Notes under the pieces: model-generated
Database searches by the model: none
The model's input: only the letters and a program-made list of their open reading frames with translations
Told to the model about the DNA's origin: nothing
DNA from: Escherichia phage Ge15
Sequence record: PP359696.1
Strand: one strand, 5' to 3'
Length of the DNA stretch: 64,000 bases
Translations under genes and position numbers: made by a program
Shown here: positions 4,747 through 20,155 of the stretch, piece by piece
Layout of the letters: each line of letters starts with the position of its first letter
Numbering within the stretch: the stretch's first letter is position 1

Positions 4747-5022
4747 ATGTTTCCAACTTATTCTAAAATCGTAGAAGTAGTGTTTAGCCAAATTATTGCT
4801 AATAATATGTTTGAAAAGCTTGATAATGCAGCTGAGCTTCGAATTCATGCTCAAGTGACTCATGTATTGAATACTTTGCTTCCAGACCAGGTGGATTCTA
4901 TTGCAATTACTCTGTATCCAGGTTCTGCTCATATTATTGTCGTATTCGGTCTTGATGCTGAGCTAGTCATCAAAGGCGATATTCGCTTTGAATCACAGAC
5001 ATCAGAATTCAAAGCAATTTAA
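4747..5022 (+). CDS. Hypothetical protein
   Basis: 91-aa ORF in pseT-cd interval. Confidence 0.5.
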   Translation: MFPTYSKIVEVVFSQIIANNMFEKLDNAAELRIHAQVTHVLNTLLPDQVDSIAITLYPGSAHIIVVFGLDAELVIKGDIRFESQTSEFKAI

Positions 5023-5024
5023 TA

Positions 5025-5063
5025 GTTTACTTTACGGTAGAGTTGTGATATTATAGCTCTACC
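5025..5063 (+). promoter_or_regulatory. Putative early promoter (GTTTAC -35, TATTAT -10) with inverted repeat enclosing the -10
   Basis: GTTTAC 5025-5030; tattat 5049-5054; inverted repeat ggtagag 5036-5042 / ctctacc 5057-5063; followed by SD GAGGA and ATG 5085. Confidence 0.5.
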
Positions 5064-5084
5064 AAAACAAATGAGGAAATTGAA

Positions 5085-5612
5085 ATGAGCGAATGGTTTG
5101 AAGAAGATAAGGTTTATCGCTTTAAAGCTGGATATAAAGATATTTTTAATGAAACTTGTGGGGCTAATAAACGAATTGCTCAGTTTATTGGGGAAAATTC
5201 ATTTAAAGTAAAAATAGATCCTGCGAAAAATGTTATTAGCATTAAACGCGAAATTGACGATTGCTGGTATAAAGCTGTTGATGTAATGGGCGAATCTTAT
5301 AAAGAAAGCCCGCTATTTTCAATTACTTATATGTCAGAATATTATTTTTTCGAAGAAGTTCAAAAAGATGACTCTATCAGTAAATTTGAAATTAAAACTG
5401 ATAAAGAAATTAAGTGGAAAGTAGTAGGTATTACTGGTTGTATGTTTTATATCTATGCTCAAACTGATACGAAGGAAGAAGCTAAAAAGAAAGCTCTAGA
5501 ATATCTTGAAGAGTATGAAGAAGGCCCGGTAATGATTACCCAAGATGCCGAATTAGTTTCTGTCAAATTAGTTAAAAACGTTGAAAGTAAGGAGCTGGGA
5601 TCAACATGCTAA
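5085..5612 (+). CDS. Hypothetical protein
   Basis: 175-aa ORF with good SD (gagga) 8 nt upstream. Confidence 0.6.
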   Translation: MSEWFEEDKVYRFKAGYKDIFNETCGANKRIAQFIGENSFKVKIDPAKNVISIKREIDDCWYKAVDVMGESYKESPLFSITYMSEYYFFEEVQKDDSISKFEIKTDKEIKWKVVGITGCMFYIYAQTDTKEEAKKKALEYLEEYEEGPVMITQDAELVSVKLVKNVESKELGSTC

Positions 5613-8642: not shown

Positions 8643-8647
8643 GTTGA

Positions 8648-8671
8648 GGACTCCTTCGGGAGTCCTTTTTT
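8648..8671 (+). terminator. Rho-independent terminator
   Basis: ggactcc-ttcg-ggagtcc hairpin followed by TTTTTT. Confidence 0.8.
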
Positions 8672-8752
8672 ATTTTCCAAAGATTGCACAAAGTTGTTTA
8701 CAGTATAGTTCCTTTGTGATAGTATTATTTTACACAAACAAAGGAGAATAAA

Positions 8753-9121
8753 ATGAAAATCAATCTTAACTCATACATCAAAGGTAAAGATCACGACGGC
8801 TATAAAGCTATCGAAACTAAAGAACTTCAGTGGCATTTATATAAAGAACAATTTGAATTCGTAGGTTGCATGACTCCTGAAGGTCCTTCTGATGATTTCT
8901 CTTGGAAAATAATGTTAACTAACTTTTTTACTGGAGATACATACGAATTAAAAACTTTGATTCTTGGTAAAATTCGCTGTGAGACTTATGAAGATAAAGA
9001 AACTGGTTATTCTGAAGATGTTACATGGTATCAAAATGGTCGTATTACCGCTGATCTTTTGATTGAAAAAATGAAAGCCAAAGGTGAATTAAATTTAGAT
9101 AATTGGATTAAAGTTGCATAA
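8753..9121 (+). CDS. Hypothetical protein (30.8 position)
   Basis: 122-aa ORF with SD aaggag. Confidence 0.6.
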   Translation: MKINLNSYIKGKDHDGYKAIETKELQWHLYKEQFEFVGCMTPEGPSDDFSWKIMLTNFFTGDTYELKTLILGKIRCETYEDKETGYSEDVTWYQNGRITADLLIEKMKAKGELNLDNWIKVA

Positions 9122-9125
9122 AATA

Positions 9126-9165
9126 GTTTACTTTGGTACAGGATATGATATTATATACCTGTACC
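9126..9165 (+). promoter_or_regulatory. Putative early promoter (GTTTAC -35, TATTAT -10) with inverted repeat enclosing the -10
   Basis: GTTTAC 9126-9131; tattat 9149-9154; inverted repeat ggtacagg 9135-9142 / cctgtacc 9158-9165; same architecture as 5025-5063 with a different stem sequence. Confidence 0.5.
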
Positions 9166-9191
9166 GCAATTAAACATCTCGGAGAATAAAA

Positions 9192-9557
9192 ATGAACTAC
9201 ATCAACTTTGAACGTAAATATGTTTCTAACGGTATTGCAGGTTCTATTGATACTATCTGCCTTTGGAAACATCAAAATGGATCAGTATGCGAAATTGAAC
9301 AGTATATGACTCCTAACTACGTTTATATGCGATTTGAAAATGGCATCACGGTTTCAATCACGAAAGAAGGTTCTTCTTTTAAAATCGCTTTAGATGATGA
9401 TTTTCGTCAACGCGATTTAGGGACTCATCCTTGCTGGAATGGCGTCAATCGTAAGCTTCTGGTTAAAACTTGGATTCGTCATATTTTGAGTAACAGAGCT
9501 AAACCTGAGCATCTTGAAGCAATCTTTGATGTAGTTCTTAACGAATTTGATATTTAA
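9192..9557 (+). CDS. Hypothetical protein (30.7 position)
   Basis: 121-aa ORF with SD ggaga. Confidence 0.6.
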   Translation: MNYINFERKYVSNGIAGSIDTICLWKHQNGSVCEIEQYMTPNYVYMRFENGITVSITKEGSSFKIALDDDFRQRDLGTHPCWNGVNRKLLVKTWIRHILSNRAKPEHLEAIFDVVLNEFDI

Positions 9558-9598
9558 AATAAAATGAGGGGCTTCGGCCCCTTACTGAGGAAAATACT

Positions 9599-18045: not shown

Positions 18046-20103
18046 ATGGAACTTATTACAGAATTATTTGACGGCGCTTCGGCGCCGGTTGTTAACTTAA
18101 ATCCTAAGCATAAAATACCTCAAATTTTTGCTATTCAAACCGGTGAAGAAAGCGTGCTTCCTGGATTTAGATTTTGTACATACACCTCTGGCGGTGATAC
18201 AAATAAAAACGTTAAGCCAGGCGATAAAATGATGCATATCGTAATGATAGGTGTTAATGAGAAACTATCATTAGTTAAACTTAAAAACTTGGGTGGAAAT
18301 CCAATTGGTGTCATTAATGCGGTTTTTGATACTGCTCTTCAAACAATGAAACAGTATAAAATTGACGCATGCCTATTCCGCGTACTAAAAAGTAAAACAA
18401 ATGGTGCAGCTCGTCAAATGCAAGTTATTGCTGACCGTTTAGTACGTACTAAAGGAGCAGGTCGATATGTTCTTTTAAAGGAAATCTGGGATTACGATAA
18501 AAAGTATGCATATATTATGGTTTACCGTAAAAATGCCAATTTAGAAGACATTCCAGGTGTACCTCCTATTTCAACTGAGTTATTCACAAAAGTTGAATCA
18601 AAGGTTGGTGATGTTTATGTAGATGTTAAAACAGGTAATGCTGTTCCTAAAGCTGTTGCTGTTGCTGCTTCTATTGCTTTAGAAAATGATAAGCGCACGG
18701 ATCAAGCTGTTATTCAGAAAACTAAAATTAGTCGTCGATTGGCAGCACAAGCTCAATATTCTACTGTCGATGCTTCGCTTCAGGGTGATAGCTTCGCTGC
18801 CAAGAAATATCAAGAGTTTGAATCTAAAGTTCCGGTATATAAAGCAGAAGGACCAATGAACTCTGGTGTTATTCAGATTGGTTCAAACTTCAGCAAAGGA
18901 GCTATCGGTGGTATGAGAAGTGCTTCTCGTTTTAAATCTAACGATTATGAACTAGAAAGCTTCCGAAATCATATTGCATTGGCTCATGCACGTTTACGTG
19001 ATCCGTCTATCAGACTGCAGAGCGATATAACACATCAAGGTTCTCAAGAATATTTAAAGAATAAAGAATTTTTTGATTATAAAACCGATAAAATTTTGAG
19101 CGATCTCGCTGACATTAATATTTCTAATAGCTTTGATGTTATTAAGAAAATTATCAATGATTTAGTTAAAGGTTCTAAAGCCACGCCAGACGAAAAGGTA
19201 GCTATTATTCAATTTGTTATGAATGGCATTTATAAATTGATTAATGAATCTGCTGCTCAGGCATATGAATACGCAAGCACCGAAGTAACTCCAAAAGGAT
19301 TAACTCAGGCTGAGTCTGATGTAATAGAAGATTATTGTGCAGATTCATATGTTGAAATGAACTCGTTCCTCTTGGGTAAACCAGATTCTACCCGTGAAGA
19401 ATACATGGAACGAGCTATTAAACACATCGAGACAATGGATTCTGCATTCGCTAAAGGTTCAGTTCTTCCTCCAGGAACTACGCTTTATCGTGGACAAGAA
19501 GTTACTTTTAAAACTTTACGTCATAATATTGAAAATAAAATGTTCTATTTCAAGAACTTCGTATCCACATCGCTTAAACCAAATATCTTCGGTGAGCATG
19601 GTAAAAACTATATGGCTCTAGATGATTCCGGCGCAGTATTTTCTGGCGAAGGAGAAGGTTCAGTTGATGCTGAAGATTTAATGCATATGGGTAGTCACTC
19701 TGCTTATGCGAATGAAGACGCTGAAACTAGCGTAGGTATGGTAATTAAAGGGGCTGAGCGAATCAAAGTTATCGTTCCAGGTCATTTATCAGGATTTCCA
19801 TCAGAAGCTGAAGTTATTTTACCGCGTGGAATTTTGCTGAAGATTAATAAAGTGAGCACGTACATGATGAAAGAAACTGCTTATAATAAGTATCTAATCG
19901 AAGGCACAATCGTTCCTCCTTCTGAACAATTAGAAGAATCGGTATATGATGGCGATCATCTAATGGAAACTGGTGAAGTTCGTCCAATGGCTGGGTTTAA
20001 TCAATTCCTTGTAGAAGAATCAAAAGAAGAGGAAAACGAAGTTTCTCAAATCTTGGCTTCTTTGGTTAACATCAACGGAATGTCTAAAAAGTTCAAGATG
20101 TAG
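18046..20103 (+). CDS. Alt-like mono-ADP-ribosyltransferase (paralog 2)
   Basis: 685 aa; same N-terminal MELITELFD and conserved first ~230 aa; divergent middle; retains R (LYRGQ), STS, ExE (EAEVILPRG). Confidence 0.8.
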   Translation: MELITELFDGASAPVVNLNPKHKIPQIFAIQTGEESVLPGFRFCTYTSGGDTNKNVKPGDKMMHIVMIGVNEKLSLVKLKNLGGNPIGVINAVFDTALQTMKQYKIDACLFRVLKSKTNGAARQMQVIADRLVRTKGAGRYVLLKEIWDYDKKYAYIMVYRKNANLEDIPGVPPISTELFTKVESKVGDVYVDVKTGNAVPKAVAVAASIALENDKRTDQAVIQKTKISRRLAAQAQYSTVDASLQGDSFAAKKYQEFESKVPVYKAEGPMNSGVIQIGSNFSKGAIGGMRSASRFKSNDYELESFRNHIALAHARLRDPSIRLQSDITHQGSQEYLKNKEFFDYKTDKILSDLADINISNSFDVIKKIINDLVKGSKATPDEKVAIIQFVMNGIYKLINESAAQAYEYASTEVTPKGLTQAESDVIEDYCADSYVEMNSFLLGKPDSTREEYMERAIKHIETMDSAFAKGSVLPPGTTLYRGQEVTFKTLRHNIENKMFYFKNFVSTSLKPNIFGEHGKNYMALDDSGAVFSGEGEGSVDAEDLMHMGSHSAYANEDAETSVGMVIKGAERIKVIVPGHLSGFPSEAEVILPRGILLKINKVSTYMMKETAYNKYLIEGTIVPPSEQLEESVYDGDHLMETGEVRPMAGFNQFLVEESKEEENEVSQILASLVNINGMSKKFKM

Positions 20104-20155
20104 TTTACAAGTCCCTCGTGTTGTGTTACAATAGTTTTACTGACATAACATGAGG
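20103..20155 (+). promoter_or_regulatory. Second copy of the GTTTAC + SD-sequestering hairpin cassette
   Basis: Near-identical to 1700-1752 (GTTTACAAGTCCCTCGTGTTGTGTTACA...CTGACATAACATGAGG); precedes ORF 20164. Confidence 0.55.

Follow-up and report, generated by a model that had tools for sequence, protein, structure and literature searches.

The 64,000-nucleotide (nt) stretch of Escherichia phage Ge15 analysed here (record PP359696.1; hereafter the window) carries two promoters, site 1 at 5025-5063 and site 2 at 9126-9165, each of which has its -10 box enclosed between the arms of an inverted repeat. Both are sigma-70 early promoters of the type used by phage T4. On balance, and with confidence only somewhat above even, we favour the reading that each also encodes an RNA stem-loop across its -10 box that would form solely in read-through transcripts, would have an intercistronic role, and would fall within the published class of strong early promoters with stem-loops (PeSL). 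A compact phage genome would thereby overlay two signals on 40 bp, a promoter read in the DNA and a hairpin read only in RNA derived from upstream.

The 5 kb around the two sites match about 1000 genomes of Tequatrovirus and related phages at identities of up to 98%, and the genes follow the T4 order (pseT, cd.5 to cd.1, cd, 31.2, 31.1, 31, rIII, 30.9, 30.8, 30.7 onward). The window is that of a Tequatrovirus, a T4-like phage, and its plus strand, on which all window features below lie, corresponds to the T4 minus strand, the direction of early transcription. Two blocks shared by the sites, AATAGTTTACTTT (5021-5033 and 9122-9134) and TGATATTATA (5046-5055 and 9146-9155, between the arms), are simply the T4 early-promoter consensus: a -35 GTTTAC, and an extended -10 consisting of TG then TATTAT. 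Site 1 reads TTTACT-17-TATTAT and site 2 TTTACT-16-TATTAT, with TG ahead of the -10 in each, and both fit the consensus TTTACW-N17-TAYWAT of Comeau 2014 (PMC4122927), which extends the PeSL class to the T4/PST pair. The pattern GTTTAC-N(14-19)-TATTAT has exactly two matches in the 64-kb window, against 0.17 expected.

Site 1 is located between the stop codon of cd.3 (5020-5022) and a 175-amino-acid (175-aa) open reading frame (ORF; start 5085). Its promoter and hairpin sequence is identical in T4, where it lies between cd.3 and cd.2, and it corresponds to early promoter Pe133295, placed between cd.2 and cd.3 in the T4 RefSeq record (NC_000866). Site 2, likewise identical in T4 in promoter and hairpin, is located between the 30.8 stop (9119-9121) and gene 30.7 (start 9192) and is the early promoter of 30.7, whose mRNA is treated as an early transcript and is cut by RegB within its Shine-Dalgarno (SD) region (PMC9409239). 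Sites 1 and 2 are thus genuine sigma-70 early promoters of a T4-type phage. The original prediction, made from the letters of the window alone, had called them early-promoter-like; the T4-like window, the early-direction strand, the Pe133295 label, the early 30.7 transcript and the fit to the T4/PST consensus all bear this out, and every sequence element that it listed for these two sites and for a third (site 3, below) is present where it was placed.

At site 1, the TAA stop codon of cd.3 (5020..5022) ends an ORF at 4747..5022 that matches Pfam DUF7355 and goes by the name cd.3 in the annotations of ime09 and T4. Two nt further on begins the -35 element GTTTACT (5025..5031; sigma-70 hexamer TTTACT at 5026-5031), which is identical in T4. 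The 5′ arm GGTAGAGTTGTG (5036..5047) contains the perfect core GGTAGAG (5036-5042), and its inner part includes the TG of the extended -10 (5046-5047); the -10 TATTAT (5049..5054) extends from the apical loop (ATAT, 5048-5051) into the upper end of the 3′ arm TATAGCTCTACC (5052..5063), which has the perfect core CTCTACC at 5057-5063 and the predicted start, A5061, within it. The SD GAGGAAA (5073-5079) and the start codon of the 175-aa ORF (5085-5087) complete the unit (5073..5087). As RNA, site 1 is predicted to fold into a 12-bp helix, GGUAGAGUUGUG/UAUAGCUCUACC, with three G·U pairs and an AUAU loop (-16.3 kcal/mol, z -6.3).

The layout of site 2 is equivalent. Gene 30.8 (ORF 8753..9121, Pfam Phage_30_8) stops at 9119..9121, 4 nt ahead of GTTTAC, and the -35 GTTTACT (9126..9132; identical in T4) is followed by the 5′ arm TGGTACAGGATATG (9134..9147; perfect core GGTACAGG, 9135-9142), the -10 TATTAT (9149..9154; apical loop ATAT, 9148-9151) and the 3′ arm TATATACCTGTACCG (9152..9166; bulged A9157, perfect core CCTGTACC at 9158-9165, predicted start near G9161). 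Further downstream (9181..9194) are the SD of 30.7, GGAG (9181-9184), the reported RegB cleavage site, and the 30.7 start codon (9192-9194). Its RNA is predicted to pair over 14 bp, interrupted by a single bulged A (-16.1 kcal/mol, z -5.0). At neither site was the fold equalled by any of 200 shuffles, and at both the stem is longer as RNA than the perfect core originally described.

Comparison of orthologous sites revealed that pairing is kept while sequence changes. IMG/VR searches returned 6 and 14 loci, mostly from close relatives, and more distant orthologs were taken singly from GenBank phages. The site 1 arms, GGTAGAG/CTCTACC in T4, are GGTAGGACT/AGTCCTACC in JS10 (two pairs altered on both sides), GGTAGAGTT/AACTCTACC in Mosigvirus and GGTCTAT/ATAGACT in TH55; the form GGTGGAG/CTCTACC, with one G·U, occurs in SHSML-52-1 and one IMG/VR contig, and is also given as Mosigvirus. 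Across the site 1 alignment 99% of cells are paired, against 33-62% with the partner slid. At site 2, the arms GGTACAGG/CCTGTACC are kept in the T4 and RB69 groups, with one G·U variant, and one inner pair varies between A-U, U-A and U·G; Marfavirus has GGTGTAGGAGTA/TACTCTTACACC, and the arms have been swapped outright, still flanking the -10, in Kanagawavirus (GCTGATTGAGTGT/ACACTCAATCAGC) and Yersinia phage MHG19 (TTGCTGATTGA/TCAATCAGCAA). Here 96.7% of alignment cells are paired, three pairs are altered on both sides, and 0/500 shuffles reach the covariation score. Compensatory changes and full arm replacements at orthologous sites thus span six or more genera. The original prediction had read covariation into the difference between sites 1 and 2; two paralogous sites do not amount to covariation in the strict sense, and it is the orthologs that supply it. 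As judged from these alignments, the stems are real and selected for pairing. Where site 2 orthologs lie behind an intrinsic terminator, as in Klebsiella phage KpV477 (235-286) and Yersinia phage fHe-Yen9-01 (246-297), the 5′ arm is lost and a remnant of the 3′ arm is kept (GACCTGTACC and CTCAATCAG, respectively), which suggests either decay of the hairpin or recombination inside the promoter.

We surveyed early promoters in the complete genome of a close relative, Tequatrovirus LF73P3, using the pattern GTTTAC-N17-TAnnAT, and identified 36 strict early promoters, all on one strand. Perfect stems of at least 7 bp whose 5′ arm lies in the spacer and whose 3′ arm lies no more than 16 nt past the -10 numbered 5 against 0.9 expected (p ~0.002 by shuffling; 0/2000 with downstream halves swapped among promoters); with the 3′ arm permitted up to 45 nt downstream, there were 13 against 1.7-2.6 expected (0/2000). 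This was the survey that the original prediction had named as the one able to overturn it, and it found stems commoner than in shuffled sequence. Judged by folding energy, a strong hairpin (-13 to -18 kcal/mol, z below -4.9) forms at 10 of the 36; at nine of them it encloses the -10, and at one (34276) the spacer pairs with the SD. Searched against every Rfam covariance model at the gathering score, the whole window gave no match.

These hairpins are not distributed evenly among promoters. Each of the nine -10-enclosing hairpins adjoins the stop codon of the preceding gene (median gap 2 nt, range -1 to 12 nt), whereas promoters behind a terminator lie 37-117 nt from it, and hairpins were found at 14/22 abutting promoters versus 1/13 non-abutting ones (p 0.0015). 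An intrinsic terminator within 130 nt upstream was found for none of the 10 hairpin promoters and for 9 of the 26 others, a difference of modest significance (Fisher p 0.039). TH55, from the genus Gaprivervirus, carries both orthologous hairpins.

The original prediction had left open whether selection acts on DNA or on RNA, and this choice can now be narrowed to RNA of the sense strand. All tolerated non-Watson-Crick pairs are G·U on the plus strand, which on the opposite strand would be A·C mismatches, and the plus strand folds better than the minus strand in 10/10 strong hairpins (at site 1, -16.3 versus -9.1 kcal/mol). As single-stranded DNA (ssDNA), the hairpins reach only -5 and -8.4 kcal/mol. 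The sense-strand G·U pairs, the strand bias and the weak ssDNA folds together place the structure in sense RNA, as does a sister class of promoters, described below, in which the spacer pairs with the SD and which is meaningful in RNA only.

How promoter and hairpin might share the same nucleotides can be proposed from this arrangement. The 5′ arm occupies the -35/-10 spacer, and the 3′ arm runs over the discriminator and the predicted start-site positions. The promoter consensus supplies the apex, in which TGTG from the extended -10 is joined to TAT(A) from the -10 by G·U pairs, and the spacer and the positions after the -10 supply the base. Judged by the usual 7-nt distance after the -10, transcription would start at ~5061 and ~9161, inside the 3′ arms, and a promoter's own transcript, starting there, could not form the hairpin. 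Both arms would be present only in sense read-through RNA from the gene directly upstream, where the hairpin, ~13 nt past the upstream stop codon, would constitute an intercistronic structure. It may serve as a 3′-end protector of the upstream message after processing, for which the RegB cut in the 30.7 SD, ~15 nt downstream of the hairpin, is a candidate step, or as an attenuator of read-through. The arms would be confined to the sequence-tolerant promoter positions, as the promoters adjoin the preceding ORF too closely for a separate hairpin to fit between, and the lack of upstream terminators combined with the abutting stop codons makes the distribution point to the end of the upstream message.

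Stable intercistronic hairpins with a stabilising role have precedents in the intercistronic C(UUCG)G hairpins of T4 and in the REP-type 3′ protectors of E. coli operons. Sites 1 and 2 resemble these in having a stable hairpin without a U-tract soon after a stop codon in polycistronic RNA, and T4-type genomes also have promoter-free intercistronic hairpins without a U-tract, for example at 9567-9582 of the window. They differ from such stabilisers in that the hairpin is superimposed on a promoter, and hence would be absent from that promoter's own transcript.

Several points weigh against this interpretation of an intercistronic read-through hairpin. The positions of the start sites, folding in vivo, stabilisation or attenuation, and any 3′ ends at the hairpin are what we infer from the layout. 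The sense-strand bias derives in part from the shared TGTG/TAT consensus, and to that extent is not independent between promoters. The terminator comparison (p 0.039) is only modestly significant, and the promoters that enter it are partly paralogous and not independent; TH55, as a replicate from a second genus, has only 9 strict promoters, too few for statistics. In ssDNA, too, G·T is the least bad mismatch, which leaves some probability for a hairpin in the non-template strand; in view of the weak energies and the strand bias we judge a DNA cruciform or a ssDNA hairpin to be unlikely. Lastly, neither hairpin has a U-tract, so that efficient intrinsic termination is unlikely.

The alternative that survives best, although we regard it as unlikely, is that the hairpin insulates translation. 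In read-through RNA it would hide the ribosome-binding site, or block re-initiation by ribosomes that terminate upstream, and most translation of the downstream gene would then come from the RNA made at that gene's own promoter. This would be the early-promoter counterpart of a logic documented for T4 e, soc, 49 and I-TevI, where a promoter lies in the DNA for the 5′ strand of a hairpin, so that long upstream transcripts fold and the promoter's own transcript cannot (PMC3014915). Sites 1 and 2 would have the same geometry if transcription begins at the putative starts, 5061 and 9161, inside the 3′ arms. The T4 cases, however, involve late or middle promoters and a hairpin that takes up the SD or AUG, whereas sites 1 and 2 are early promoters whose SD is not part of the stem, the 3′ arms ending 9 and 15 nt ahead of it. 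Predicted accessibility of the SD-AUG region in the -10-enclosing class falls from 0.63 in a promoter's own RNA to 0.52 in read-through RNA, much as at hairpin-free promoters (0.56 to 0.48). It falls at site 1 in one genome (0.73 to 0.32), but at site 2 it rises (0.68 to 0.85). Masking of the SD by the site 1 and 2 hairpins is thus unsupported.

The translational reading also draws on the sister class mentioned above. At about six of the 36 early promoters (LF73P3 reverse-strand 30722, 34276, 44622, 80548, 95901 and 131608), and at 8710-8745 of the window, the spacer is predicted to pair with the SD or AUG (-12 to -23 kcal/mol, z down to -6.6), as in TTCCTCCAAG/CTTGGAGGAA and CTGTTCCTC/GAGGAACAG. 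Such pairing would hide the ribosome-binding site in read-through RNA only, as in e, soc and 49, and in this class predicted accessibility drops from 0.59 to 0.26. At the 30.7 site, S16 and Pet-CM3-4 have an SD-pairing form (CTCCGTTGTAT/ATACAACGGAG) where T4 has the -10-enclosing one, which suggests that the two forms may be interchangeable.

The window example of the SD-pairing class is site 3, the early promoter of gene 30.8 (8696..8725; GTTTAC 8696-8701, -10 TAGTAT 8720-8725). The original prediction had presented 8696-8728 as a third variant of the same element, with the repeat around the -35. That repeat is real: CACAAAG (8687-8693), which is part of a recurrent upstream consensus, can pair with CTTTGTG (8712-8718) in the spacer. 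The site is nevertheless of a different kind. It follows a real intrinsic terminator (GAGGACTCCTTCGGGAGTCCTT then a T-run, 8646..8677, after gene 30.9), and its spacer pairs best with the 30.8 SD, TCCTTTGT (8710-8717) with ACAAAGGA (8738-8745) over 8 bp (8710..8745), overlapping the SD AAGGAG (8741-8746). The site 3 region of the window folds no better than shuffles (z -1.7), its minimum-energy fold using the SD pairing; the LF73P3 ortholog reaches -12.1 kcal/mol (z -3.2). Site 3 and about six other early promoters thus fit the SD-sequestering form known from e, soc and 49.

We consider it quite improbable that the structure acts in the DNA, with either a ssDNA hairpin or the ~60-bp cassette as a preferred recombination site for shuffling small ORFs, as in the mini-circle model for PeSL; such a role would loosely resemble that of integron attC sites, which conserve structure and not sequence. 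Several observations are in line with this. The 175-aa ORF, which is not in T4, sits exactly between the site 1 leader and SD and the cd.2 start codon; the KpV477 promoter is chimeric, with a 3′ arm only; the site 1 leader CAAAACAAATGAGGAAA turns up again in S16, at a locus of no relation to site 1; and Arbiol 2010 (PMC2839356) demonstrated PeSL recombination and mini-circles in RB49 and phi1, including one crossover inside the loop. Recombination, however, needs homology and not pairing, so the replacement of arms with complementarity kept is not explained by it. The ssDNA hairpins, moreover, are weak (the two energies given above), and a DNA-level role gives no reason to expect the SD-pairing class, the confinement of hairpins to promoters abutting an ORF, or their absence behind terminators. 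Roles in recombination and in RNA are not mutually exclusive.

Rho-independent terminators overlapping the promoter would stop upstream transcription where the next unit begins. In line with this idea, sites 1 and 2 have, as such terminators do, a stable RNA hairpin where a cistron ends, and the hairpins and true terminators have complementary distributions. The site 1 ortholog of Escherichia phage SA35RD (Mosigvirus; 212-261) is annotated as a T4-type early promoter plus rho-independent terminator (WebGeSTer), and the PeSL papers call the stem-loop a terminator or attenuator (PMC2839356, PMC4122927); the former describes an RB49 PeSL stem-loop that, placed between a promoter and lacZ, cut expression about as much as a strong terminator. 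Intrinsic terminators are nonetheless unlike sites 1 and 2, which have an AU-rich loop and upper stem and no U-tract: the site 1 stem runs into AAAACAAAT and that of site 2 into GCAATTAAAC. A terminator scan flagged neither site yet found the real terminator at 8646-8667, and other LF73P3 hairpins of the same type, inspected by eye, also lack a T-run. We therefore reject the identification of sites 1 and 2 as intrinsic terminators, a reading that we hold to be very unlikely.

A dyad-symmetric operator, through which a dimeric DNA-binding protein would shut early promoters off, would have the dyad centred on the -10, a classic operator position, and the shut-off of T4 early promoters is unexplained according to two reviews (PMC3014915, PMC2988021). 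This reading is scarcely tenable: the promoters have no common half-site (GGTAGAG, GGTACAGG, ATAGGCTCAT, TAGGGTA, TGATGAG and GGACCA), nor do the orthologs, and the absence of a shared half-site largely refutes a common repressor operator; besides, duplex recognition does not account for a G·U-type tolerance on one strand only, and the repeat is found in only about one quarter of early promoters. Least credible of all is chance, or a by-product of the partly self-complementary consensus TGTGATAYTAT, for while the apical 4-5 pairs of every such hairpin are indeed consensus positions, the basal 7-13 pairs lie outside the consensus, exceed both shuffles and swapped promoter halves, and covary or are replaced wholesale among orthologs, so that survey enrichment and ortholog covariation refute it.

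We return to the reading of an intercistronic read-through hairpin and to its place among known elements. PeSL are described in Arbiol 2010 (PMC2839356) as strong early promoters with stem-loops in any of five positions, among them 'between the -35 and -10' and 'overlapping the -10'. Its members couple a strong early promoter of the sigma-70 type, with AT-rich DNA upstream, to a stem-loop of variable sequence, and they have an SD and ATG at the 3′ end; copies recur throughout the regions that hold small non-essential ORFs, and they lie at indel junctions where close relatives differ. Sites 1 and 2 show the promoter, the stem-loop, and the stop codon, SD and start codon; the repetition and indels are seen in the 36 strict copies in LF73P3, the insertion of the 175-aa ORF relative to T4, and the chimeric KpV477 ortholog. 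By structure and distribution, then, the two sites appear to belong to the described PeSL class. They are unlike the stem-loops of the T4/PST figure legend in PMC4122927, which it places 'just upstream of the promoter' with the form AGNA-loop-TCNT; those of sites 1 and 2 differ in sequence and enclose the -10. The PeSL papers stress terminator function and recombination. The present analysis adds the sense-strand G·U bias, the rule that hairpins go with abutting ORFs and with a lack of terminators, and an estimate of how large the SD-pairing class is.

Because the PeSL class is already published, the current picture of T4, the best-studied phage, is unchanged. Were the function confirmed, however, it would explain how neighbouring early transcription units are insulated without terminators, and would provide a rule for annotating and engineering T4-like phages, in which inserting or deleting a gene at such a junction alters the structure of the read-through RNA. 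A wider generalisation, which we put forward as doubtful, is that ~40% of T4-type early promoters (15/36 here; 14/22 of those abutting) lie inside hairpins that exist only in read-through transcripts, so that each gene has two mRNA forms. Each such early gene would then have a 'private' mRNA plus a folded read-through form, the latter untranslatable in the SD-pairing class, and end-protected or attenuated in the -10-enclosing class. This would extend the e/soc/49 paradigm genome-wide to early promoters, tie early gene expression to a gene's own promoter, and so have a share in the sharp, as yet unexplained, shut-off of early protein synthesis.

Other features of these loci were noted. The 175-aa ORF (window 5080-5605), for which no Pfam family match was found, lies between the site 1 leader and SD and the start of cd.2, and is missing from T4 and some relatives; in T4, cd.2 directly follows the same leader. 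The left junction of the ORF is between GAGGAAA and ATG, and its right side has no second promoter cassette. In Salmonella phage S16, a promoter at an unrelated locus, the trna.4 region (135-235), has the site 1 leader CAAAACAAATGAGGAAA together with a stem of its own, AGGGTTAT/ATAACCCT, that encloses the -10; the shared leader indicates that a whole promoter-leader cassette recurs at different loci.

The T4 RefSeq record describes 133300-133313, which corresponds to the 14-nt loop of site 1 (window 5043-5056), as 'inverted complement of previously reported sequence'. An invertible-loop switch was considered and rejected: of 419 matching records, a query with the loop inverted matched over at least 80% of its length in just one, the old T4 fragment X03007.1, and the inverted loop there looks like a hairpin-induced sequencing or cloning artefact and not a natural inversion.

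Two further elements lie elsewhere in the window. A fourth strict early promoter, GTTTACAAGTCCCTCGTGTTGTGTTACAAT, is present at 20103-20132; its LF73P3 ortholog adjoins the upstream ORF (gap -1 nt) and has no strong hairpin around the -10 (z ~-0.1, or ~-2.5 with the fold extended to the AUG). Between 30.7 and 30.6, the promoter-free hairpin at 9567-9582, AGGGGCTTCGGCCCCT, is GC-rich with a UUCG tetraloop and lacks a T-run in the sense direction; read on the other strand, it precedes CATTTTATTT and may there terminate antisense, late-direction transcription.

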